Part shown: piece by piece, positions 4,964-48,800 of the stretch | Layout: each line of letters opens with the position of its first letter | Position numbering within the stretch: the first letter of the stretch is position 1 | Origin: Eledone cirrhosa | Taxonomy: Eukaryota | Direction of reading: 5' to 3' | DNA length: 64,000 bases | Assembly (NCBI GenBank): GCA_964016885.1 | Contig: OZ024748.1 | Coordinates: 35,836,001-35,900,000, forward strand | Program-made: the position numbers and the translations under genes | Notes under the pieces: model-generated | Databases searched by the model: none | Told to the model about the DNA's origin: nothing | Seen by the model: only the letters and a program-made list of their open reading frames with translations

Positions 4964-5031
<68 letters not shown>

Positions 5032-5036
5032 ATGTG

Positions 5037-8000
5037 TGTTTGTGTCTATGAGTGTATATATATGCTATATACTTGAGAGTGTGTGTGGGTGTATATATGT
5101 GTGTTTGTGTCTATGTGTGTGTATATATGCTATATATTTGAGAGTGTGTGGGTGTATATATGTGTGTTTGTGTCTGTGTGTGTATATATACTATATACTT
5201 GAGTGTGTATGGGTGTATATATGTGTGTTTGTGTCTATGTGTGTGTATATATGCTATATATTTGAGAGTGTGTGTGGGTGTATATATGTGTGTTTGTGTC
5301 TATGTGTGTGTATATATACTATATACTTGAGAGTGTGTATGGGTGTATATATGTGTGTTTGTGTCTATGTGTGTGTATATATGCTATATATTTGAGAGTG
5401 TGTGTGGGTGTATATATGTGTGTTTGTGTCTGTGTGTGTATATATGCTATATATTTGAGAGTGTGTGGGTGTATATATGTGTGTTTGTGTCTATGTGTGT
5501 GTATATATGCTATATACTTGAGAGTGTGTGTGGGTGTATATATTTGTGTTTGTGTCTATGTGTGTGTATATATGCTATATATTTGAGAGTGTGTATGGGT
5601 GTATATATGTGTGTTTGTGTCTATGTGTGTGTATATATGCAATATGTTTGAGAGTGTGTGTGGGTGTATATATGTGTGTTTGTGTCTATGTGTGTGTATA
5701 TATGCTATATACTTGAGAGTGTGTGTGGGTGTATATACGTGGGTTTGTGTCTGTGTGTGTGTATATATGCTATATATTTGAGAGTGTGTGTGGGTGTATA
5801 TATGTGTGTTTGTGTCTATGTGTATGTATATATGCTATATACTTGAGAGTGTGTGTGGGTGTATATATGTGGGTTTGTGTCTGTGTGTGTGTATATATGC
5901 TATATATTTGAGAGTGTGTGTGGGTGTATATATGTGTTTGTGTCTAAGTGTGTATATATGCTATATACTTGAGAGTGTGTATGGGTGTATATATGTGTGT
6001 TTGTGTCTATGTGTGTGTATATATGCTATATATTTGAGAGTGTGTATGGGTGTATATATGTGTGTTTGTGTCTATGTGAATGTATATATGCTATATATTT
6101 GAGAGTGTGTGGGTGTATATATGTGTGTTTGTGTCTGTGTGTGTGTATATATGCTATATATTTGAGAGTGTGTGTGGGTGTATATATGTGTGTTTGTGTC
6201 TAAGTGTGTGTATATATAGTATATACTTGAGAGTCTGTGTGGGTGTATATATGTGTGTTTGTGTCTATGTGTGTGTATGTATGCTATATATTTGAGAGTG
6301 TGTGGGTGTATATATGTGTGTGAGTGTCTATGTGTGTGTATATATGCTATATACTTGAGAGTGTGTATGGGTGTATATATGTGTGTTTGTGTCTATGTGC
6401 GTATATATATGCTATATATTTGAGAGTGTGTATGGGTGTATATATGTGTGTTTGTGTCTATGTGTGTGTATATATGCTATATACTTGAGAGTGTGTGTGG
6501 GTGTATATATGTGTGTTTGTGTCTGTGTGTGTATATATGCTATATATTTGAGAGTGTGTGGGTGTATATATGTGTGTTTGTGTCTATGTGTGTGTATATA
6601 TGCTATATATTTGAGATTGTGTGGGTGTATATATATGTGTTTGTGTCTATGTGTGTGTACATATGCTATATATTTGAGAGTGTGTGTGGGTGTATATATG
6701 TGTGTTTGTGTCTATTTGTGTGTATATATGCTATATACTTGAGAGTGTGTGTGGGTGTATATATGTGCGTTTGTGTCTATGTGTGTGTATATATGCTATA
6801 TATTTGAGTGTGTGTATGGGTGTATATATGTGTGTTTGTGTCTATGTGCGTATATATATGCTATATATCTGAGAGTGTGTATGGGTGTATATATGTGTGT
6901 TTGTGTCTATGTGTGTGTATATATGCTATATATTTGAGAGTGTGTGGGTGTATATATGTGTGTTTGTGTTTATGTGTGTGTATATATGCTATATATTTGA
7001 GAGTGTGTGGGTGTATATATGTGCGTTTGTGTCTATGTGTGTGTATATATGCTATATATTTGAGAGTGTGTGGGTGTATATATGTGTGTTTGTGTCTATT
7101 TGTGTGTATATATGCTATATACTTGAGAGTGTGTGGGTGTATATATGTGTGTTTGTGTCTATGTGTGTGTATATATGCTATATATTTGAGAGTGTGTGTG
7201 GGTGTATATATGTGTGTTTGTGTCTATGTGTGTGTATATATGCTATATATTTGAGAGTTTGTGTGGGTGTATATATGTGTGTTTGTGTCTATGTGTGTGT
7301 ATATATGCTATATATTTGAGTGTGTGTGTGGGTGTATATATGTGTGTTTGTGTCTATGTGTGTGTATATATACAATATATTTGAGAGTGTGTGGGTGTAT
7401 ATATGTGTGTTTGTGTCTGTGTGTGTGTATATATGCTATATATTTGAGATTGTGTGGGTGTATATATGTGTGTTTGTGTCTATCTGTGTATATATATGCT
7501 ATATATTTGAGAGTGTGTGTGGGTGTATATATGTGTGTTTGTGTCTATGTGTGTGTATATATGCTATATATTTGAGAGTGTGTGTGGGTGTATATATGTG
7601 TGTTTGTGTCTAAGTCTGTGTATATATAGTATATACTTGAGAATGTGTATGGGTGTATATATGTGTGTGTGTGTCTATGTGTGTGTATATATGCTATATA
7701 TTTGAGAGTGTGTGTGGGTGTATATATGTGTGTTTGTGTCTATGTGTGTGTATATATGCAATATATTTGAGAGTGTGTGGGTGTATATATGTGTGTTTGT
7801 GTCTAAGTGTGTGTATATATAGTATATACTTGAGAGTGTGTATGGGTGTATATATGTGTGTGTGTGTCTATGTGTGTGTATATATGCTATATATTTGAGA
7901 GTGTGTGTGGGTGTATATATGTGTGTTTGTGTCTATGTGTATGTATATATGCTATATATTTAAGAGTGTGTGGGTGTATATATGTGTGTTTGTGTCTAAG

Positions 8001-9252
8001 TGTGTGTATATATAGTATATACTTGAGAGTGTGTATGGGTGTATATATGTGTGTGTGTGTCTATGTGTGTGTATATATGCTATATATTTGAGAGTGTATG
8101 TGGGTGTATATATGTGTGTTTGTGTCTATGTGTGTGTATATATGCTATATATTTGAGAGTGTGTGGGTGTATATATGTGTGTGTGTCTATGTGTGTGTAT
8201 ATATACTATATACTTGAGAGTGTGTATGGGTGTATATATGTGTGTTTGTGTCTATGTGTGTGTATATATGCTATATATTTGAGAGTGTGTATGGGTGTAT
8301 ATATGTGTGTTTGTGTCTATGTGTGTGTATATATGCTATATATTTGAGAGTGTGTATGGGTGTATATATGTGTGTTTGTGTCTATGTGTGTGTATATATG
8401 CTATATATTTGAGTGTGTGTGGGTGTATATATGTGTGTTTGTGTCTATGTGTGTGTATATATGCTATATATTTGAGAGTGTGTGGGTGTATATATGTGTG
8501 TGTGTGTCTATGTGTGTGTATATATGCTATATATTTGAGAGTGTGTGGGTGTATATATGTGTGTTTGTGTCTATGTGTGTGTATATATGCTATATATTTG
8601 AGAGTGTGTGTGGGTGTATATATGTGTGTTTGTGTCTATGTGTGTGTATATACGCTATATATTTAAGTGTGTGTGGGTGTATATATGTGTGTTTGTGTCT
8701 ATGTGTGTGTATATATGCTATATATTTGAGAGTGTGTGGGTGTATATATGTGTGTGTGTGTCTATGTGTGTGTATATATGCTATATATTTGAGAGTGTGT
8801 GGGTGTATATATGTGTTTGTGTCTATGTGTGTGTATATATGCTATATATTTGAGAGTGTGTGTGGGTGTATATATGTGTGTTTGTGTCTATGTGTGTGTA
8901 TATATACTATATACTTGAGAGTGTGTATGGGTGTATATATGTGTGTTTGTGTCTATGTGTGTGTGTATATATGCTATATACTTGAGAGTGTGTGTGGGTG
9001 TATATATGTTTTTGTGTCTATGTGTGTATATATATACTTGAGAGTGTGTGTGGGTGTATATATGTGTGTTTGTGTATATATATACTATATACTTGAGAGT
9101 GTGTATGGGTGTATATATGTGTGTTTGTGTCTATGTGTGTGTATATATGCTATATATTTGAGAGTGTTTGTGGGTGTATTTATGTGTGTTTGTGTCGATG
9201 TGTGTGTATATATGCAATATATTTGAGAGTGTGTGGGTGTATATATGTGTGT
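5037..9252. repeat. 63/65-bp minisatellite, about 65 copies
   Basis: Unit gagagtgtgt(gt)gggtgtatatatgtgtgtttgtgtctatgtgtgtgtatatatgctatatattt; explains the C/V/Y/I ORFs. Confidence 0.95.
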
Positions 9253-9467
9253 ATGTCACCGAAAGATCCTGGAGAAAAACGGAATAGTTTCGAAATGTGT
9301 CTCAAGAAAAATATTGTTAGGTTGGGAGTTTCTCAATATCGACTCCCGAATCGTCAGTTCATCAGGTATGATGAGGAAAAAAATTATAATTACACATGCA
9401 CTCCTCTCTCTCTCACTCTTTGTCACAAGTACATTCAAACCCCTCTCTCTCTCTCTCTTACACTCTC

Positions 9468-15844: not shown

Positions 15845-16014
15845 GCATGCACATGTATGCGTTTTTACTCGTATATAAAAACAAGTATTATTATACCGCA
15901 ATACAAAGCGTGAAGTATATAATCTAAAAAATGTTGACTGCAAACATTCGCTAAAGCTGGCTTTTCAGGCATTTTGAAAGGTCTCTCACGTTATATATAT
16001 ATATATATATATGA

Positions 16015-16079
16015 ATGGTATCAACCTTATTGCACTGAAATCATAATAACTTCCAGGGGTTGACTGAAGAGATGGGACT
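16015..16079 (+). ncRNA. Strand-permuted (pseudoknotted) hammerhead-like RNA, variant 1
   Basis: atgg TA tcaacc ttattgcact GAAA tcat aataacttccagg ggttga CTGAAGA gatgggact; same architecture as 27223-27326 and 35838-35940. Confidence 0.6.
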
Positions 16080-16125
16080 TTCCGTCTTTCCGTTGTTTTT
16101 CAATTGTCTTTGTCCTTTGCGCCCC

Positions 16126-16175
<50 letters not shown>

Positions 16176-16187
16176 TACATATATATA

Positions 16188-20524
<4,337 letters not shown>

Positions 20525-20848: not shown

Positions 20849-20976
20849 CAGGAGAACATGATATGAAGGCTAAAAAACACTTGTGGATAGTGCAGTTTTA
20901 AATCAACATATGAAAAGTGGTTTTAGATTGATGTGTGATATTGGGAAAAATATTTTATTTAGAGAGGGGGGGGGGA

Positions 20977-22281
20977 AATTGCAATATAGTTAAACTTAAT
21001 ATTATTAAGAACAATATACGTAATCTCTTTAACCAACATAACCTAAAAATTGAATTTGATAATAGTATCAAACTAGCTAATTTCTTGGATGTATCTCTTA
21101 ATCTTGACACTGGCCTATATTACCCTTACCATAAAAACAATGAGAACCTTAATTATGTTAACTTTAAATCTAACCATCCTACCAATATCAAGAATGCTAT
21201 AGTTAATAATATTGGGAATAGAATATCTAACATATCTTCTAATAAAAACATCTTTGATGCTAACGCCAATTACTATAATAACGCACTTTCTAAAGCCGGC
21301 TATCCAGATAAAATCAAATATAATAAAGAAACAAATTCTAGAAAAACTTACAGTAGAATAATTAATCATGACCATTCCAATAATTTTAATAAAAGACCTA
21401 GATACAAAAACATAATCTGGTATAATGCTCCTTTCTCCATCTCTATTAATAACAATATTCCTAAATTATTTTTTAGTGCCTTAAATAAATGCTTCCCTCA
21501 CTCACATATCTATAGTAAAATATTTAACAAACACACCATCAAATTTTCGTACTCTACATCCTCCAATATTTCCAACATCATCTCTAAACACAACAACAAA
21601 ATATTAAATACTAAATCTCTTCCTTCCAATATTGAATTTCATAATAACAATAATAGTACTCCCGACGTCATTGTAAACCCTAGGCTAACTTCTGTAAACC
21701 CAAATACAACGTCAAACACAACTTCGCTAAATGTTCATAATCCAACTCTAAATCAAGAAACTATTATTCCTATTATTCCTATCGCAAACAACTTCTCCAA
21801 TCCAATTCCTTCTATAGATAACACTAGATCACTCATTAATAATCTCTCTAATTGCAACTGCCGCATTAAAAATAAATGTCCTCTCAACAACCATTGCCTC
21901 GATAAAAACCTAATTTATGAATGTAAAATTATAACTAGCACCAATTCCTTCACCTATTTTGGCTCCACTTCCACCTCTTTTAAAGCTCGTCTCTATAATC
22001 ATCATTCATCTTTCAAATACAAACTTAAAAGAACTAACACTGCTCTCTCAGAACTCATATGGTCCTTAAAAGACAAAAACATTAAATATACCATCTTTTG
22101 GAAGAAGATTTCTTCTGCATCCTCATACTTGAACAGCTCTCTATCTAAAATCTGTAATCTCTGCCTAAATGAAAAATTTACCATTATCTCTAACCTAGAT
22201 TCTATAATAAATAGACGCTCAGATTTGTTTTCTATCTGCCTGCATAAATTCCATAGAACTTTTCACAAAGTATACAGTTAA
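20977..22281 (+). pseudogene. C-terminal half of the PLE polyprotein (RT thumb plus GIY-YIG), lacking YRDD
   Basis: Matches copy 1 from NCNIVKL onward. The track's start at 20935 lies in the inverted pLTR and is chimeric. Confidence 0.88.
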
Positions 22282-23293: not shown

Positions 23294-23360
23294 TTTTATC
23301 TGATGAAAACACAAATATTATTGCTTGATGATGTTTGTTTTTGAAATGCGCATAATAAAA
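23294..23360 (+). ncRNA. Type I hammerhead ribozyme in 3' pLTR
   Basis: ttttat CTGATGA aaacacaaatattatt-gctt-gatgatgtttgttttt GAAA tgcgca TA ataaaa; predicted cleavage after 23354. Confidence 0.88.
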
Positions 23361-28449: not shown

Positions 28450-28775
28450 ATTCGAAATATTAATAAATGAAGCCATTCATATAATCAAAATATATGTTTT
28501 ATTATATATATTTCGAAGGTACTGTGCTGTTTTTTCAGTACCTCCTCGTCAGATAAAATACCATCAAGACCGTTGAGGTATGTCATACATCAATTCATGT
28601 ATTTGTCTGACGAGGGCGTACTGAAAAAACATCACAGTACCTTCGAAATATATATAATAAAACATATATTTTGATTATGTGAATGTCTTCATTTATTAAT
28701 ATTTTGGATAATAACTCCAGAAAAATTTAATGTAGAGTGCTTTTAATCTATTGTAAAACTATATTCATTGTGTAA
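28450..28775. mobile_element. Fold-back PLE-end element with two back-to-back HHRs (28497-28558 minus, 28601-28662 plus)
   Basis: Arms at about 28450-28560 and 28599-28710; ttttat CTGACGA ggaggtactg..cagtaccttc GAAA tatata TA ataaaa; hairpin at 28714-28738. Confidence 0.85.
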
Positions 28776-35837: not shown

Positions 35838-35940
35838 AGTCCCTCATCAGTGATTTGCCAACGATCATTGGTATTTCATCGCATTAAAAATCATATACCT
35901 CACGTTGGTGCAATAATAACTAAAATATGTTATTAGGACA
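35838..35940 (-). ncRNA. Strand-permuted hammerhead-like RNA, variant 3
   Basis: gtcc taataac-loop-gttatta ttgca ccaacg tga ggta TA tgattt ttaatgcgat GAAA tacc aatgat cgttgg c aaatca CTGATGA g ggac. Confidence 0.65.
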
Positions 35941-36371: not shown

Positions 36372-36474
36372 AGTCCCTCATCAGTGATTTGCCAACGATC
36401 ATTGGTATTTCATCGCATTAAAAATCATATACCTCACGTTGGTGCAATAATAACTAAAATAAGTTATTAGGACA
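36372..36474 (-). ncRNA. Strand-permuted hammerhead-like RNA, tandem duplicate of variant 3
   Basis: Identical to 35838-35940 apart from one loop substitution. Confidence 0.65.
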
Positions 36475-38120: not shown

Positions 38121-38902
38121 CAAAATTAAGATAAATTAAATGAATTTAATCTAAATCAAAATTATGGGTGTCATGCCAGTAGACATGCGCCATATCACCC
38201 GGAAAATAAGCTCTAAGATTCTAACGAGTAGGTCCGAGCATTTTATAATAACTAGATGTGTGGTTACACACTTGTAAAAACTATCTCCTGTGATTATTCA
38301 TGTTTATTTATATGTTAATCAATTTCTAGTTATTATAAAATGCTCGGACCTACTCGTTAGAATCTTAGAGCTTATTTTCCGGGTGATATGGCGCATGTCT
38401 TTCTGGCATGACACCCATAATTTTGATTTAGATTAAATTCATTTAATTTATCTTAATTTTGGATATAGATATATAAATACGGCTCCTTAATTGTAGAGCT
38501 AACTCTGTTGAAAGGACTCGACTGCTGTTTCTAGTTGTCGATACCCTATTCACGCCACTGGGACGAAGCTACTATGATGTGTGTATTTCTAGTAAATACA
38601 ACACGTGGTGAAGCTAGTCGCAGATTTGAACTTGAAGTGTAAACGCGGATTGCTGGAACTTCTTCCTTGTTGAAAATCCAAGTCCCCACTTCCGTGGTTT
38701 ACCATCCGATTAATTGGTGAAATATATTTCTTTAATGGAATATATACAGGGAAGATTAATCATATTATAAGGTATCTATTTTTGAAGTTCTGGTCAACTT
38801 TATTTAGTTAACAACTTAGCTATGTGTGGTTACACACTTGTAAAAATTATCTCCTGTGATTATTCATGTTTATTTATATGTTAATCAATTTCTAGCTATT
38901 AT
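38121..38902 (+). mobile_element. Fold-back plus partial-tandem non-coding element (566-bp period)
   Basis: Inverted arms 38121-38256 and 38325-38461; 38256-38336 is repeated at 38822-38902; (TA)n on both sides; hairpin variant at 38482-38499. Confidence 0.75.
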
Positions 38903-39317
38903 ATATATATGTGATACAATCAGAGATTTAATATATTTATTGTTTGTATGAAATAAGTGAAAGAGAAAGAGATAGAGGTGTGTGTGTCGGAGAGGGGGGG
39001 GGGGGAGATGTTACAATTTTACGATGTAATTTAAATTGTATTAATTACATCAGTGATTGATTTAAATGTAATTAGTTTGATGTTCCCAACCATTAATTTA
39101 TTTAACATCACGTTATCTGCATTATGTTTAGTTAACGAATTATTATATTGAACACGTTATCGATCACTGGATAATTGTGTTTGTCAGAACATCATAAAAC
39201 ATCACGTGATAGCTCATCTACTTAGCTCCCTCCCTTTACCTCCTCAGTTCAAATGGCGTCCCTGGGCCACCGATATTTTACTGGTTTCAGTCACTGGACT
39301 GGCAATTATACAGGGAT

Positions 39318-42300
39318 AAAGGGTTACACAGGACTGACAGTTATGTGGGGACACTATCTTTAAAGGGTTAGACAGGACGGACAGTTATGTGGGGACACTG
39401 TCTTTCAAGGGTTAGACAGGACGGACAGTTATGTGGGGACACTGTCTTTAAAGGGTTAGGCAGAACTGACAGTTATGTGGGAACACTGTCTTTAAAGGGT
39501 TAGACAGGACTGACAGTTATGTGGGAACACTGTCTTTAAAGGGTTATACAGGACTGACAGTTATGTGGGGACACTGTCTTTAAAGGGTTAGATAGGACTG
39601 ACAGTTATGTGGGGACACTGTCTTTAAAGGGTTAGACAGGACTGACAGTTATGTGGGGACACTATCTTTGAAGGGTTAGACAGGACTGATAGTTATGTGG
39701 GGACACTGTCTTTAAAGGGTTAGACAGGACTGACAGTTATGTGGGGACACTATCTTTAAAGGGTTAGACAGGACTAACAGTTATGTGGGGACACTGTCTT
39801 TAAAGGGTTAGACAGGACTGACAGTTATGTGGGGACACTGTCTTTAAAGGGTTAGACAGAACTGACAGTTATGTGGGGACACTGTCTTTAAAGGGTTAGA
39901 CAGGACTGACAGTTATGTGGGAACACTGTCTTTAAAGGGTTAGACAGGACTGCCAGTTATGTGGGGACACTGTCTTTAAAGGATTAGACAGGAGTGACAG
40001 TTATGTGGGGACACTGTCTTTAAAGGGTTAGACAGGACTGACAGTTATGTGGGAACACTATCTTTAAAGGGTTAGACAGGACTGACAGTTATGTGGGGAC
40101 ACTATCTTTAAATGTTTAGACAGGACTGACAGTTATGTGGGGACACTGTCTTTAAAGGGTTAGACAGAACTGACAGTTATGTGGGGACACTGTCTTTAAA
40201 GGGTTAGACAGGACTGACAGTTATGTGGGGACACTGTCTTTAAAGGGTTAGACAGGACTGACAGTTATGTGGGGACACTATCTTTAAAGGGTTAGACAGG
40301 ACGGATAGTTATGTGGGGACACTGTCTTTAAAGGGTTAGATAGGACTGACAGTTATGTGGGGACACTGTCTTTAAAGGGTTAGACAGGACTGACAGTTAT
40401 GTGGGGACACTATCTTTGAAGGGTTAGACAGGACTGACAGTTATGTGGGGACACTGTCTTTAAAGGGTTAGACAGGACTGACAGTTATGTGGGGACACTA
40501 TCTTTAAAGGGTTAGACAGGACTGACAGTTATGTGGGGACACTGTCTTTAAAGGGTTAGACAGGACTGACAGTTATGTGGGGACACTATCTTTAAAGGGT
40601 TAGACGGAACTGACAGTTATGTGGGGATACTGTCTTTAAAGGGTTAGACAGGACTGACAGTTATGTGGGGACACTGTCTTTAAAGGGTTAGACAGGACTG
40701 ACAGTTATGTGGGGACACTATCTTTAAAGGTTTCGACAGGACTGACAGTTATGTGGGGACACTGTCTTTAAAGGGTTAGACAGGACTGACAGTTATGTGG
40801 GGACACTATCTTTAAAGGGTTAGACAGGACTGACAGTTATGTGGGGACACTATCTTTAAAGGTTTCGACAGGACTGACAGTTATGTGGGGACACTATCTT
40901 TAAAGGGTTAGACAGGACTGACAGTTATGTGGGGACACTATCTTTAAAGGGTTAGACAGGACTGACAGTTATGTGGGGACACTGTCTTTAAAGGGTTAGA
41001 CAGAACTGACAGTTATATGGGGACACTATCTTTAAAGGGTTAGACAGGACTGACAGTTATGTGGGGACACTGTCTTTAAAGGGTTAGACAGAACTGACAG
41101 TTATATGGGGACACTATCTTTAAAGGGTTAGACAGAACTGACAGTTATGTGGGGACACTGTCTTTAAAGGGTTATACAGGACTGACAGTTATGTGGGGAC
41201 ACTATCTTTAAAGGGTTAGACAGGAAGGACAGTTATGTGGGGACACTGTCTTTAAAGGGTTAGACAGGACTGACAGTTATATGGGGACACTATCTTTAAA
41301 TGTTTCGACAGGACTGACAGTTATGTGGGGACACTGTCTTTAAAGGGTTAGACAGAACTGACAGTTATGTGGGGACACTATCTTTAAAGGGTTATACAGG
41401 ACTGACAGTTATGTGGGGACACTATCTTTAAAGGGTTAGACAGGACGGATAGTTATGTGGGGACACTGTCTTTAAAGGGTTAGATAGGACTGACAGTTAT
41501 GTGGGGACACTGTCTTTAAAGGGTTAGACAGGACTGACAGTTATGTGGGGACACTATCTTTGAAGGGTTAGACAGGATTGACAGTTATGTGGGGACACTG
41601 TCTTTAAAGGGTTAGACAGGACTGATAGTTATGTGGGGACACTGTCTTTAAAGGGTTAGACAGGACTGACAGTTATGTGGGGACACTGTCTTTAAAGGGT
41701 TAGACAGGACTGACAGTTATGTGGGGACACTGTCTTTAAAGGGTTAGACAGGACTGACAGTTATGTGGGGACACTATCTTTAAAGGGTTAGACAGGACGG
41801 ATAGTTATGTGGGGACACTGTCTTTAAAGGGTTAGATAGGACTGACAGTTATGTGGGGACACTGTCTTTAAAGGGTTAGACAGGACTGACAGTTATGTGG
41901 GGACACTATCTTTGAAGGGTTAGACAGGATTGACAGTTATGTGGGGACACTGTCTTTAAAGGGTTAGACAGGACTGACAGTTATGTGGGGACACTGTCTT
42001 TAAAGGGTTAGACAGGACTGACAGTTATGTGGGGACACTATCTTTAAAGGGTTAGACAGGACGGATAGTTATGTGGGGACACTGTCTTTAAAGGGTTAGA
42101 CAGGACTGACAGTTATGTGGGGACACTGTCTTTAAAGGGTTAGACAGGACTGACAGTTATGTGGGGACACTGTCTTTAAAGGGTTAGACAGGACTGACAG
42201 TTATGTGGGGACACTGACTTTAAAGGGTTAGACAGGACGGATAGTTATGTGGGGACACTATCTTTGAAGGGTTAGACAGGATTGACAGTTATGTGGGGAC

Positions 42301-45300
42301 ACTGTCTTTAAAGGGTTAGACAGGACTGACAGTTATGTGGGGACACTATCTTTAAAGGGTTAGACAGGACTGACAGTTATGTGGGGACACTATCTTTAAA
42401 GGGTTAGACAGGACTGACAGTTATGTGGGGACACTGTCTTTAAAGGGTTAGACAGGACTGACAGTTATGTGGGGACACTATCTTTAAAGGGTTAGACAGG
42501 ACTGACAGTTATGTGGGGACACTATCTTTAAAGGGTTAGACAGGACTGACAGTTATGTGGGGACACTGTCTTTAAAGGGTTAGACAGGACTGACAGTTAT
42601 GTGGGGACACTATCTTTAAAGGGTTAGACAGGACTGACAGTTATGTGGGGACACTATCTTTAAAGGGTTAGACAGGACTGACAGTTATGTGGGGACACTA
42701 TCTTTAAAGGGTTAGACAGGACTGATAGTTATGTGGGGACACTGTCTTTAAAGGGTTAGACAGGACTGACAGTTATGTGGGGACACTATCTTTAAAGGGT
42801 TAGACAGGACTGACAGTTATGTGGGGACACTATCTTTAAAGGGTTAGACAGGACTGACAGTTATGTGGGGACACTGTCTTTAAAGGGTTAGACAGGACGG
42901 ATAGTTATGTGGGGACACTATCTTTGAAGGGTTAGACAGGATTGACAGTTATGTGGGGACACTGTCTTTAAAGGGTTAGACAGGACTGATAGTTATGTGG
43001 GGACACTGTCTTTAAAGGGTTAGACAGGACTGACAGTTATGTGGGGACACTATCTTTAAAGGGTTAGACAGGACTGACAGTTATGTGGGGACACTATCTT
43101 TAAAGGGTTAGACAGGACTGACAGTTATGTGGGGACACTGTCTTTAAAGGGTTAGACAGGATTGACAGTTATGTGGGGACACTATCTTTAAAGGGTTAGA
43201 CGGAACTGACAGTTATGTGGGGATACTGTCTTTAAAGGGTTAGACAGGACTGACAGTTATGTGGGGACACTGTCTTTAAAGGGTTAGACAGGACTGACAG
43301 TTATGTGGGGACACTGTCTTTAAAGGGTTAGACAGGACTGACAGTTATGTGGGGACACTATCTTTAAAGGGTTAGACAGGACTGACAGTTATGTGGGGAC
43401 ACTATCTTTAAAGGTTTCGACAGGACTGACAGTTATGTGGGGACACTATCTTTAAAGGGTTAGACGGAACTGACAGTTATGTGGGGACACTGTCTTTAAA
43501 GGGTTAGACAGGACTGACAGTTATGTGGGGATACTGTCTTTAAAGGGTTAGACAGGACTGACAGTTATGTGGGGACACTGTCTTTAAAGGGTTAGACAGG
43601 ACTGACAGTTATGTGGGGACACTGTCTTTAAAGGGTTAGACAGGACTGACAGTTATGTGGGGACACTATCTTTAAAGGGTTAGACAGGACTGACAGTTAT
43701 GTGGGGACACTATCTTTAAAGGTTTCGACAGGACTGACAGTTATGTGGGGACACTATCTTTAAAGGATTAGACAGGACTGACAGTTATGTGGGGACACTG
43801 TCTTTAAAGGGTTAGACAGGACTGACAGTTATGTGGGGACACTGTCTTTAAAGGGTTAGACAGGACTGACAGTTATGTGGGGACACTGTCTTTAAAGGGT
43901 TAGACAGGACTGACAGTTATGTGGGGACACTATCTTTAAAGGGTTAGACAGGACTGACAGTTATGTGGGGACACTATCTTTAAAGGTTTCGACAGGACTG
44001 ACAGTTATGTGGGGACACTATCTTTAAAGGATTAGACAGGACTGACAGTTATGTGGGGACACTGTCTTTAAAGGGTTAGACAGGACTGACAGTTATGTGG
44101 GGACACTGTCTTTAAAGGGTTAGACAGGACTGACAGTTATGTGGGGACACTGTCTTTAAAGGGTTATACAGGACTGACAGTTATGTGGGGACACTATCTT
44201 TAAAGGGTTAGACAGGAAGGACAGTTATGTGGGGACACTGTCTTTGAAGGGTTATACAGGACTGACAGTTATGTGGGGACACTGTCTTTAAAGGGTTAGA
44301 CAGGACTGACAGTTATGTGGTGACACTATCTTTAAAGGGTTAGACAGGACTGACAGTTATGTGGGGACACTGTCTTTAAAGGGTTAGACAGAACTGACAG
44401 TTATGTGGGGACACTGTCTTTAAAGGGTTTGACAGGACTGACAGTTATGTGGGGACACTGTCTTTAAAGGGTTATACAGGACTGACAGTTATGTGGGGAC
44501 ACTATCTTTAAAGGGTTAGACAGGACGGATAGTTATGTGGGGACACTGTCTTTAAAGGGTTAGATATGACTGACAGTTATGTGGGGACACTGTCTTTAAA
44601 GGGTTAGGCAGGACTGACAGTTATGTGGGGACACTGTCTTTAAAGGGTTAGACAGGACTGACAGTTATGTGGGGGACACTATCTTTAAAGGGTTAGACAG
44701 AACTGACAGTTATGTGGGGACACTGTCTTTAAAGGGTTAGACAGGACTGACAGTTATGTGGGGACACTGTCTTTAAAGGGTTAGACAGGACTGACAGTTA
44801 TGTGGGGACACTGTCTTTAAAGGGTTAGATATGACTGACAGTTATGTGGGGACACTATTTTTAAAGGGTTAGACAGGACTGACAGTTATGTGGGGACACT
44901 GTCTTTAAAGGGTTAGACAGGTCTGACAGTTATGTGGGGACACTGTCTTTAAAGGGTTAGACAGGACTGACAGTTATGTGGGGACACTGTCTTTAAAGGT
45001 TTAGACAGGACTGACAGTTATGTGGGGACACTATCTTTAAAAGATTAGACAGAACTGACAGTTATGTGGGGACACTGTCTTTAAAGGGTTAGACAGGACT
45101 GACAGTTATGTGGGGACACTGTCTTTAAAGGGTTAGACAGGAGTGACAGTTATGTGGGAACACTATCTTTAAAGGGTTTGACAGGACTGACCGTTATGTG
45201 GGGACACTATCTTTAAAGGTTTAGACAGGACTGACAGTTATGTGGGGACACTGACTTTAAAGGGTCATACAGGTCTGACAGTTATGTGGGGACACTGTCT

Positions 45301-48300
45301 TTGAAGGGTTATACAGGACTGACAGTTATGTGGAGACACTGTCTTTGAAGGGTTAGACAGGACTGACAGTTATGTGGCAACACTATCTTTAAAGGGTTAG
45401 ACAGGACTGACAGTTATGTGGGGACACTGTCTTTAAAGGGTTAGACAGGACTGACAGTTATGTTGGGACACTGTCTTTAAAAGGTTAATCAGAACTGAGA
45501 GTTATGTGGGGACACTGTGTTTAAAGGGTTAGACAGGACTGACAGTTATGTGGGGACACTGTCTTTAAAGGGTTAGACAGGACTGACAGTTATGTTGGGA
45601 CACTGTCTTTAAAAGGTTAATCAGAACTGAGAGTTATGTGGGGACACTATCTTTAAAGGGTTAGACAGGACTGACAGTTATGTGGGGACACTATCTTTAA
45701 AGGGTTAGACAGGACTGACAGTTATGTGGGGACACTGTGTTTAAAGGGTTAGACAGAACTGACAGTTATGTGGGGACACTGTCTTTAAAGGGTTAGACAG
45801 GACTGACAGTTATGTGGGGACACTGTCTTTAAAGGGTTAGACAGGACTGACAGTTATGTGGGGACACTGTCTTTAAAGGGTTAGACAGGACTGACAGTTA
45901 TGTGGGGACACTGTCTTTAAAGGGTTAGACAGGACTGACAGTTATGTGGGGACACTGTCTTTAAAGGGTTAGACAGGACTGACAGTTATGTGGGGACACT
46001 ATCTTTAAAGGGTTAGACAGGACTGACAGTTATGTGGGGACACTATCTTTAAAGGGTTAGACAGGACTGACAGTTATGTGGGGACACTATCTTTAAAGGG
46101 TTAGACAGGACTGACAGTTATGTGGGGACACTGTCTTTAAAGGGTTACACAGGACTGACAGTTATGTTGGGACACTGTCTTTAAAAGGTTAATCAGAACT
46201 GAGAGTTATGTGGGGACACTGTGTTTAAAGGGTTAGACAGGACTGACAGTTATGTGGGGACACTGTCTTTAAAGGGTTAGACAGGACTGACAGTTATGTG
46301 GGGACACTGTCTTTAAAGGGTTAGACAGGACTGACAGTTATGTGGGGACACTGTCTTTAAAGGGTTAGACAGGACTGACAGTTATGTGGGGACACTGTCT
46401 TTAAAGGGTTAGACAGGACTGACAGTTATGTGGGGACACTGTCTTTAAAGGGTTAGACAGGACTGACAGTTATGTGGGGACACTATCTTTAAAGGGTTAG
46501 ACAGGACTGACAGTTATGTGGGGACACTATCTTTAAAGGGTTAGACAGGACTGACAGTTATGTGGGGACACTATCTTTAAAGGGTTAGACAGGACTGACA
46601 GTTATGTGGGGACACTGTCTTTAAAGGGTTACACAGGACTGACAGTTATGTTGGGACACTGTCTTTAAAAGGTTAATCAGAACTGAGAGTTATGTGGGGA
46701 CACTGTGTTTAAAGGGTTAGACAGGACTGACAGTTATGTGGGGACACTGTCTTTAAAGGGTTAGACAGGACTGACAGTTATGTGGGGACACTGTCTTTAA
46801 AGGGTTAGACAGGACTGACAGTTATGTGGGGACACTGTCTTTAAAGGGTTAGACAGGACTGACAGTTATGTGGGGACACTATCTTTAAAGGGTTAGACAG
46901 GACTGACAGTTATGTGGGGACACTATCTTTAAAGGTTTCGACAGGACTGACAGTTATGTGGGGACACTGTCTTTAAAGGGTTAGACAGAACTGACAGTTA
47001 TGTTGGGACACTGTCTTTAAAGGGTTAGACAGGAGTGACAGTTATGTGGGAACACTATCTTTAAAGGGTTAGACAGGACTGACCGTTATGTGGGGACACT
47101 ATCTTTAAAGGGTTAGACAGGACTGACAGTTATGTGGGGACACTGTCTTTAAAGGGTTACACAGGACTGACAGTTATGTTGGGACACTGTCTTTAAAGGG
47201 TTAGACAGGACTGACAGTTATGTGGGGACACTGTCTTTAAAGGGTTAGACAGGACTGACAGTTATGTGGGGACACTATCTTTAAAGGTTTCGACAGGACT
47301 GACAGTTATGTTGGGACACTGTCTTTAAAGGGTTAATCAGAACTGAGAGTTATGTGGGGACACTGTGTTTAAAGGGTTAGACAGGACTGACAGTTATGTG
47401 GGGACACTGTCTTTAAAGGGTTAGACAGGACTGACAGTTATGTGGGGACACTATCTTTAAAGGGTTAGACAGGACTGACAGTTATGTGGGGACACTATCT
47501 TTAAAGGTTTCGACAGGACTGACAGTTATGTGGGGACACTGTCTTTAAAGGGTTAGACAGGACTGACAGTTATGTGGGGACACTGTCTTTAAAGGGTTAG
47601 ACAGAACTGACAGTTATGTTGGGACACTGTCTTTAAAGGGTTAGACAGGAGTGACAGTTATGTGGGAACACTATCTTTAAAGGGTTAGACAGGACTGACC
47701 GTTATGTGGGGACACTATCTTTAAAGGGTTAGACAGGACTGACAGTTATGTGGGGACACTGACTTTAAAGGGTTATACAGGACTGACAGTTATGTGGAGA
47801 CACTGTCTTTGAAGGGTTAGACGGAACTGACAGTTATGTGGGGACACTGTCTTTAAAGGGTTAGACAGAACTGACAGTTATGTGGGGACACTGTCTTTAA
47901 AGGGTTAGACAGGACTGACAGTTACGTTGGAACACTATCTTTAAAGGGTTAGACAGGACTGACAGTAATGTGGAGACACTGTCTTTGAAGGGTTAGACAG
48001 GACTGACAGTTACGTTGGAACACTATCTTTAAAGGGTTAGACAGGACTGACAGTTATGTGGAGACACTGTCTTTAAAGGGTTAGACAGGACTGACAGTTA
48101 CGTTGGAACACTATCTTTAAAGGGTTAGACAGGACTGACAGTTATGTGGAGACACTGTCTTTGAAGGGTTAGACAGGACTGACAGTTATGTGGGACACTG
48201 TCTTTAAAGGGTTAGACAGGACTGACAGTTATGTGGGGACACTGTCTTTAAAGGTTTAGACAGGACTGACAATTATGTGGGGACACTGTCTTTGAAGGGT

Positions 48301-48800
48301 TATACAGGACTGACAGTTATGTGGGGACACTGTCTTTAAAGGGTTAGACAGGACTGACAGCTATGTGGGGACACTGTTTTTAAAGGGTTAGACAGGACTG
48401 ACAGTTATGTGGGGACACTGTCTTTAAAGGGTTAGACAGAACTGACAGTTATGTGGGGACACTGTCTTTAAAGGGTTACACAGGACTGACAGTTATGTGG
48501 GGACACTGTCTTTAAAAGGTTAATCAGAACTGAGAGTTATGTGGGGACACTGTCTTTAAAGGGTTAGACAGGACTGACAGTTATGTGGGGACACTGTCTT
48601 TAAAGGGTTAGACAGGACTGACAATTATGTGGGGACACTGTCTTTAAAGGGTTAGAAAGAACAGACAGTTATGTGGGGACACTGTCTTTAAAGGGTTAGA
48701 CAGGACTGACAGTTATGTGGGGACACTATCTTTGAAGGTTTAGACAGGACTGACTGCCAGGCAGTAATGCTAGGACACTGTCTTTAAAGGTTTAGTCTGG
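39318..48800. repeat. 44-bp tandem satellite, about 215 copies
   Basis: Unit aaagggttagacaggactgacagttatgtggggacactrtcttt; no unique spacers. Confidence 0.97.

Follow-up and report, generated by a model that had tools for sequence, protein, structure and literature searches.

A repeat family of Eledone cirrhosa with a predicted knotted hammerhead-type ribozyme and probable Naiad-type mobilization

Does a hammerhead-like motif lying between (TA)n tracts in an animal genome represent a selected fold, and if so, in what kind of element did it act? We addressed this question for 16015–16079 of a window, i.e., the whole stretch of 64,000 nt of Eledone cirrhosa DNA that was analyzed (GCA_964016885.1, OZ024748.1:35836001-35900000, forward strand), and searched the 3.0 Gb genome for related copies. 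The window is AT-rich, with abundant (TA)n and (CA)n repeats. A hammerhead core is found at 16015–16070 (+) in the order cleavage site, GAAA, CUGAnGA, which is the order of type SGC of Eckert et al. 2023. A structural scan for this order together with stems I and III returned three matches in the window (16015+, 35899− and 36433−) and none in each of 40 block-wise Markov resamplings of the window. Upon rereading the letters, we located every motif element listed in the original prediction at its position: UA, GAAA, CUGANGA, the linker, the 13-nt spacer and the downstream ggact. No hammerhead was present among the 128 Rfam matches at E ≤ 1, which were rejected as microsatellite-driven miRNA and snoRNA noise.

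The copy lies between two (TA)n tracts and is truncated on its 5′ side, as predicted. The first tract (~15992–16011) forms the truncation junction and is the likely insertion target. The boundary of the copy had to be corrected: it starts with TGA (16012–16014, +), the first letters surviving the truncation, assigned to the short strand of a k-turn-like loop. The features that follow are all on the forward strand. The 5′ strand of stem III, ATGG (16015–16018), pairs at 4/4 positions with the 3′ strand TCAT (16041–16044), and the 5′ strand of stem I, TCAACC (16021–16026), pairs at 6/6 positions with GGTTGA (16058–16063); the 3′ strands were placed by the structural scan and by pairing. Between the 5′ strands lies TA (16019–16020), corresponding to U16.1-H17 in the triplet GUA, and cleavage is predicted after 16020 by analogy with hammerheads. 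The whole linker, TTATTGCACT (16027–16036), was read directly from the window letters, as were the core GAAA (16037–16040) and the 13-nt spacer (16045–16057). According to sequence comparison among copies, the linker opens with the stem I to stem II connection TTAT (16027–16030), which reads TTAA in most copies of families A–C (see below), in Naiad_Amil and in Naiad_Esco. It continues with the stem II strand before GAAA, TGCAC plus position 11.1, a T (16031–16036), the partner of TGCAC belonging to the lost leader. The spacer comprises AATAAC (16045–16050), the bulged strand of the k-turn-like loop, and TTCCAG (16051–16056), the 3′ strand of a helix bridging stems I and II whose partner CTGGAA is lost in this copy. 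The core CUGAAGA (CTGAAGA, 16064–16070) is followed by G10.1, which extends the feature to 16071 and is the sole local stem II base according to the tally of 10.1–11.1 pairs given below. GGGAC (16074–16078; GGGACT at 16074–16079) represents the 3′ strand of a closing helix, P0, with its partner GTCCC also lost. The family A tail follows at 16079–16128 and, based on copy alignment, reaches the common 3′ end of the family beside the second (TA)n tract (16129–16187, repeat scan), the 3′ junction.

The window copy differs from the family A majority at 8/77 letters. Upstream of its TGA, the leader GTCCC..GTGCA CTGGAA is missing, and with the leader absent stem II cannot be continued. The bulged strand, AGTGAT in family A, reads AATAAC in the window copy, where the G of the k-turn G.A pair is gone and the pair does not form. 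Judging from its letters, the copy is likely dead, having lost both the leader and the k-turn G, and 16012–16128 is likely the 5′-truncated, inactive 3′ end of an old protein-less tandem element of family A. Selection acted on the source elements, not on this truncated and decayed copy. Short elements with long terminal inverted repeats were also found between (TA)n tracts at 16188–16430, 16660–16803 and 38130–38460; these are likely inverted 5′-truncated ends of Penelope-like elements (PLEs). Two large minisatellites occupy 39317–48754 (44-nt unit, 214 copies, 94% match) and 5030–9256 (65-nt unit, 66 copies).

Longer copies had been expected to carry the upstream partners ggaa, tgca and gtcc, and the predicted upstream pairing was found in most indel-free loci. 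A DNA search with 16011–16127 yielded 888 candidates, of which 40 were scored, at 81–87% identity. We examined 29 other loci, 27 of them indel-free in the core. In these 27 copies, the upstream DNA paired with TTCCAG at at least 5/6 positions in 17, with TGCAC at at least 4/5 positions in 15, and with GGGAC at at least 4/5 positions in 17. The literal GGAA, TGCA and GTCC were present in 15, 8 and 9 of them, respectively, and the whole core was intact in 15. These tallies indicate that the leader GTCCC..GTGCA CTGGAA TGA is the normal state of family A. Several of the remaining family A loci were 5′-truncated, like the window copy. Conservation within family A was 0.95 in the core vs 0.89 in the flank, as under neutral decay.

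In the whole genome, three patterns describing the 3′ half of the motif matched 2200, 851 and 126 times, vs 0, 0 and 1 for the reversed patterns; as the third pattern overlaps the first two, the total is ~3,000. The matches listed fall into at least four repeat families. Family A (418-nt unit), to which 16015+ belongs, is old, as is family D; family B (488–534-nt unit, subfamilies B1–3) is young, and family C has a unit of ~540 nt. The best 40 of 2497 family B candidates were 97–98% identical to the family B copy of the window. This copy possesses the complete ribozyme-like fold, including leader, hairpin and 4-way junction (35839–35939, −), and is the 3′ unit of a tandem array in which the structural scan identified a second copy 534 nt upstream (36373–36473, −). 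Tandem periods were 418 and 488–560 nt, with one ribozyme motif per non-coding unit. The common 3′ end mostly lies 60–90 nt past the core in families A and B and is flanked by (TA)n, and the 5′ ends are variable. Among the loci examined, we found none in which the motif was connected to an ORF, and the units have no long ORF. Logan contigs from three other organisms cover the ribozyme region of family B at 80–99%, and none from three runs was placed on family A, which does not prove its absence there; we did not count the contigs as support.

We compared the window copy with the family B copy at 35838–35940. Almost no stem sequence is shared (6/26 stem letters identical vs 26/33 non-stem letters), in agreement with the original prediction. 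Of the claim on the downstream element, the ggac itself held but its spacing did not, as its distance from the core exceeds that of the 35899 copy by 2–3 nt. The description of the window motif as highly diverged is accurate, but "independent" is better replaced by "separate family, same ancestry": linker lengths and letters are identical between the window and 35899-family motifs, which points to common descent. Outside the motif, the family A unit (418 nt) and the unit of the 35899 family (534 nt) showed no blastn similarity (best E 0.64), and segments of families B and C were 72–76% identical.

The fold was assessed via covariation. In alignment A1 (23 copies from families A and B), 94% of cells were paired and 16/22 pairs had changed on both sides, with slid controls at 23–47%; in alignment A2 (12 copies of A, B1–3 and C), the values were 96%, 19/33 and 23–50%, respectively, the rows of both alignments having been chosen for an intact leader from few lineages, those of A2 by hand, so that shuffle counts are not probabilities. 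Two-sided changes across families were seen in A2 for 4/4 pairs of stem III, 5/6 pairs of stem I and 5/6 pairs of the bridging helix, and compensated between-family changes also occur in the leader-made part of stem II; P0 was conserved, with no two-sided change seen. A hairpin is inserted at the P0 side in families B and C, and its base pair (T-A/C-G) covaries. The covariation stems from a handful of lineages rather than from copy number and is the same for helices in cis and in trans; changes like that from ACGG/CCGT to ATGG/CCAT inside family A may reflect no more than CpG decay. Nested minimum free energy folds cannot show pseudoknots and were left out of the fold evidence.

A second set comprised 58 distinct pattern matches chosen by the 3′ half alone, so that CUGAnGA, GAAA and the bulged strand of the k-turn were fixed by the pattern. 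UH was kept in 50 of these, stem III in 49, stem I in 50, the bridge in 47, the leader-made stem II in 44, and the 10.1–11.1 pair in 53; all six features were kept in 38. The 10.1–11.1 pair was G.U in 26 matches, A-U in 12, U-A in 12 and G-C in three, with C.A in four and U.U in one. This pair covaries and the next position is unpaired, so a direct stem II ends after one pair (4/4 copies tested), from which we infer that stem II is continued by the 5′ leader. No type II reading was found within one copy (4/4 copies tested), and the circular orders CGS, GSC and SCG were not found within one molecule, the order being SGC. The motif has the features of a hammerhead, namely the core CUGAnGA/GAAA/UH, stems I and III, and a 10.1–11.1 pair with a helix formed via the leader. 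GA precedes stem III in 40/58 matches and the k-turn G is missing in 18/58, eight of which have TTA and belong to family C. In five family C loci (L108, L114, L116, L118 and L125), TTA replaces TGA, which removes the G.A pair but leaves every stem in place; this TTA subfamily is a natural test of the need for the k-turn. We are very confident that the fold is real and selected. That it is old, selected across element families and not a chance rearrangement within one of them had been proposed for this locus and is borne out by units of families A and B without blastn similarity in which every stem swaps letters yet pairs.

How would such a fold work? The 5′ leader would complete stem II and close the domain, through a 3-way junction in family A or a 4-way junction in families B and C, and the leader-closed domain would be a circularly re-opened form of type SGC. 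The UGA/RRUGAU loop, which joins stem III to the stem I–II bridge, would form a k-turn bending the bridging helix back over the core. Read-through multimeric transcripts would self-cleave after NUA/NUC into unit-length RNAs, maybe circularized, as in retrozymes. A PLE reverse transcriptase/endonuclease would prime the unit RNAs at (TA)n and would often halt within the folded ribozyme. Such a premature halt, 9 nt beyond the cleavage site, would have produced the window copy; as this copy begins 9 nt upstream of the predicted site, its template would have been uncut or re-joined. Self-cleavage of the source elements is a prediction that we consider highly probable.

The candidate mobilizers are PLEs of the Naiad type, which were described in the available text of Craig et al. 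2021 (PMC8557442) as lacking canonical hammerheads and often targeting (TA)n, with eight "half cores" flagged. The 3′ ends of 15 published Naiad consensus sequences were inspected by eye, three as whole sequences and 12 as the last ~500 nt. Five of the 15 end in the same wiring: Naiad_Obim, Naiad_Ovul, Naiad_Amil, Naiad-4_Dst and Naiad_Esco, from octopus, squid, coral and ostracod hosts; the motif was not seen by eye in the other 10 ends. Naiad_Obim and Naiad_Ovul are near-identical and share the TGA/AATGAT k-turn loop, the 13-nt spacer and the leader hairpin loop with family B. Naiad_Esco has the wiring with an imperfect stem II, and the k-turn is absent from coral Naiad_Amil and ostracod Naiad-4_Dst, where G10.1 is apparently supplied by the leader. 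In the supplement of the same paper, the ends of Naiad_Smim, Naiad-2_Dst and Naiad-3_Dst have CUGACGA cores with flanks resembling other, non-SGC wirings. We conclude that the motif is likely the ribozyme that Naiads were reported to lack. Naiads are also probably the mobilizer of the repeats, though we hold this with less assurance than self-cleavage.

The strongest alternative accepts the ribozyme but assigns mobilization to a PLE with a C-terminal endonuclease and no tie to Naiads, such as the one encoding the 821-aa ORF at 16818–19283. The Naiad-like remnants of this genome are old (30 remnants, 72–85% identical to the query remnant), and none of the 30 has a recognizable motif downstream, though several reach the 3′ end; this speaks for the alternative when set against the young family B (97–98%). 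A search for Naiad reverse transcriptase motifs in this genome gave three matches vs one in the control, and the exact 19-letter Naiad_O motif is absent from it. Insertion at (TA)n, a fixed 3′ end, 5′ truncation and tandem copies were all observed, and none of them is Naiad-specific. The window also contains an intact PLE-like ORF, which is flanked by (TA)n like the repeats. Against the alternative, that element owns a canonical minimal type I hammerhead (23300+, 20842−), and the leader hairpin loop, TGA/AATGAT loop and 13-nt spacer of family B recur in the Naiad_Obim/Ovul ends. Overall, we consider a mobilizer without a Naiad tie unlikely, at roughly one chance in a few.

The frame at 16818–19283 (+) is open over 821 residues and RT-like (YRDD), with C-terminal GIY-YIG-like motifs and a Cys linker; by eye, its sequence suggests an intact PLE, and neither Pfam nor PDB yielded a significant match. 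A partial second copy of the element lies at 20932–22281 (+), and a near-identical copy was found in another locus (L026). We rejected a link between the window copy and this ORF since the two are separated by (TA)n tracts and another repeat, since the ORF was found beside other copies only as an overlap or unrelated neighbor, and since it has its own type I hammerhead. The hammerheads at 23300 (+) and 20842 (−), a direct and an inverted copy with palindromic stem III TGCGCA, are located at the end of the repeat of this PLE. Minimal type I hammerheads of a second family, with a TA palindrome as stem III, are found at 28607 (+), 28552 (−), 33775 (−) and 54193 (−), the first two forming an inverted pair. 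Another family of PLEs with C-terminal GIY-YIG lies near family B copies in L040 (2366–3199), L063 (1–830), L042 and L080 with (TA)n in between, which likely reflects shared target sites. For the GIY-YIG ORF 550 nt upstream of the family B copy in L063, a link was rejected, as (TA)n separates the two.

Two further alternatives concern the ribozyme itself, and we consider each of them improbable. In the first, the helices form between two tandem units as a domain-swapped dimer with one of the ordinary circular orders, e.g., type III, the site and CUGAnGA coming from one unit and GAAA from the next, as in small PLE hammerheads. The units are indeed tandem, with periods of 418 and 488–560 nt, covariation is blind to cis vs trans pairing, and a title cited in Eckert et al. 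2023 (PMC10085705) has small PLE hammerheads cleaving as dimers. However, the SGC constructs of ~80 nt described in the available text of that paper cleave during transcription, and the published Naiad ends, as inspected, hold a single motif copy each. Furthermore, the stems here are 4–6 bp and non-palindromic, vs the palindromic stem III of the minimal type I hammerheads of the window, and the k-turn-like loop is what a fold in cis would need.

In the second, the fold was selected because the PLE reverse transcriptase recognizes it or uses it for priming, with hammerhead-like letters left from an ancestor. Its fixed place near the 3′ end agrees with this, as does the clustering of 5′ truncations over the fold with no peak at the site. 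We counted the 5′ ends of 106 family B arrays (107 were mapped, one of which ran off the locus; overlapping loci were dropped). Between the predicted site and the ribozyme 3′ end we counted 30 ends, where the rest of the unit predicts 8.2; for the leader, the observed and expected values were 11 and 13, respectively. The excess persisted when ends were split by TA/AT microhomology (non-TA, 5.5 vs 1.9 per 1000 nt; other, 17.3 vs 7.5 per 1000 nt). No sharp peak was found at the cleavage site in these arrays (4–5 ends vs 2.8 in the 10 nt after the site). The excess fits reverse transcriptase stalling in folded RNA and is no proof of cleavage. Arrays running across the site and a stem II with only one local pair also agree with a recognition structure. 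Against it, four families and three phyla retain every core position and UH despite turnover of the stems, and variation is seen at N7 and H17, the positions without constraint in hammerheads, as catalysis would predict. As for a chance arrangement of short motifs within a repeat, the motifs are short and the genome is AT-rich, but thousands of matches vs 0–1 in the controls, the covariation, and viral contigs in which 0/120 pattern matches fold in the site-GAAA-CUGAnGA wiring leave it a negligible probability.

Taken together, we consider it quite probable that the locus derives from an old family A element with a predicted knotted self-cleaving ribozyme and Naiad-type mobilization. Hammerheads that are not circularly permuted have so far come from environmental RNA, with hosts unknown and no genetic context; here, an animal genome contains thousands of copies from several families, and a concrete job can be proposed and tested. 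The assumption of continuity between CUGAnGA and stem II, which is used to enumerate permutations, is broken here, so current descriptors and Rfam would miss the fold. A direct answer is offered to the reported lack of hammerheads in Naiads, once taken to suggest that hammerheads merely parasitize PLEs. If the box C/D-like k-turn of cephalopods needs 15.5K/Snu13 to fold, as we propose only tentatively below, the motif there would be a natural protein-switched ribozyme. The window copy contributes the most divergent covariation in the window and is not an active gene.

In the loop proposed here, a 3-nt bulge is followed by G.A, A.G and U.U between two helices. The box C/D k-turn has U.U at the matching position. 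The proposed loop fits the standard k-turn in the available text of Huang and Lilley 2016 (PMC5061560), according to which box C/D and U4 k-turns require an L7Ae-type protein to fold. Unlike the standard form, the loop here is embedded in a hammerhead and is not universal, as some family C copies and the Naiads of coral and ostracod lack it, and its kink is predicted. It is also an addition to type SGC: "kink" had no matches in the supplement text of Eckert et al. 2023 (PMC10085705).

In its available text, that study defines type SGC (HRIMA-1 and variants), with in vitro cleavage at 0.007–0.19 per min, from metatranscriptomes and with none in genomes of known organisms. The motif shares with it the order S-G-C, pseudoknotted stems, the short stem I–II linker, the bridging helix and all core letters. 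In Eckert et al., CUGAnGA and its stem II strand are assumed to remain together as an uninterrupted "block C"; in the present motif, the strand breaks off after one base and is supplied by the leader, whereas in Naiad ends the break precedes the first base, G10.1 apparently deriving from the leader in Naiad_Amil, Naiad-4_Dst and Naiad_Obim/Ovul and following the core here. As stem II cannot be extended locally beyond its first pair, we regard the motif as a variant of type SGC rather than a plain member. A literature search, with subscription papers outside its scope, turned up no paper that deals with SGC hammerheads in either animal genomes or Naiads.

Animal retrozymes are defined by type I hammerheads and circles of ~170–400 nt (Cervera and de la Pena 2020, PMC7229834; Li et al. 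2026, preprint, 10.64898/2026.07.22.740005), and octopus and SGC are unmentioned in the available parts of both papers. The repeats resemble non-LTR retrozymes in their non-coding tandem units of a few hundred nt with one ribozyme each, GC content below 45%, thousands of copies and co-occurrence with PLEs. They differ in having SGC-type order rather than a type I hammerhead and in units of 418–550 nt. With Naiad PLEs (PMC8557442, available text), they share (TA)n insertion, 5′ truncation and tandem 3′ ends, but the repeats encode no protein, and none was found joined to a Naiad ORF. Only tentatively do we propose that the motif is a seventh natural hammerhead wiring, SGC re-opened at A9/10.1 with a leader-built stem II running through a multi-way junction, that this is the missing Naiad ribozyme from cnidarians to molluscs and arthropods, driving thousands of retrozyme-like copies, and that its cephalopod k-turn needs host 15.5K/Snu13. 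From these comparisons, the motif would act like a type-SGC hammerhead placed in a retrozyme, as a plain member of neither.
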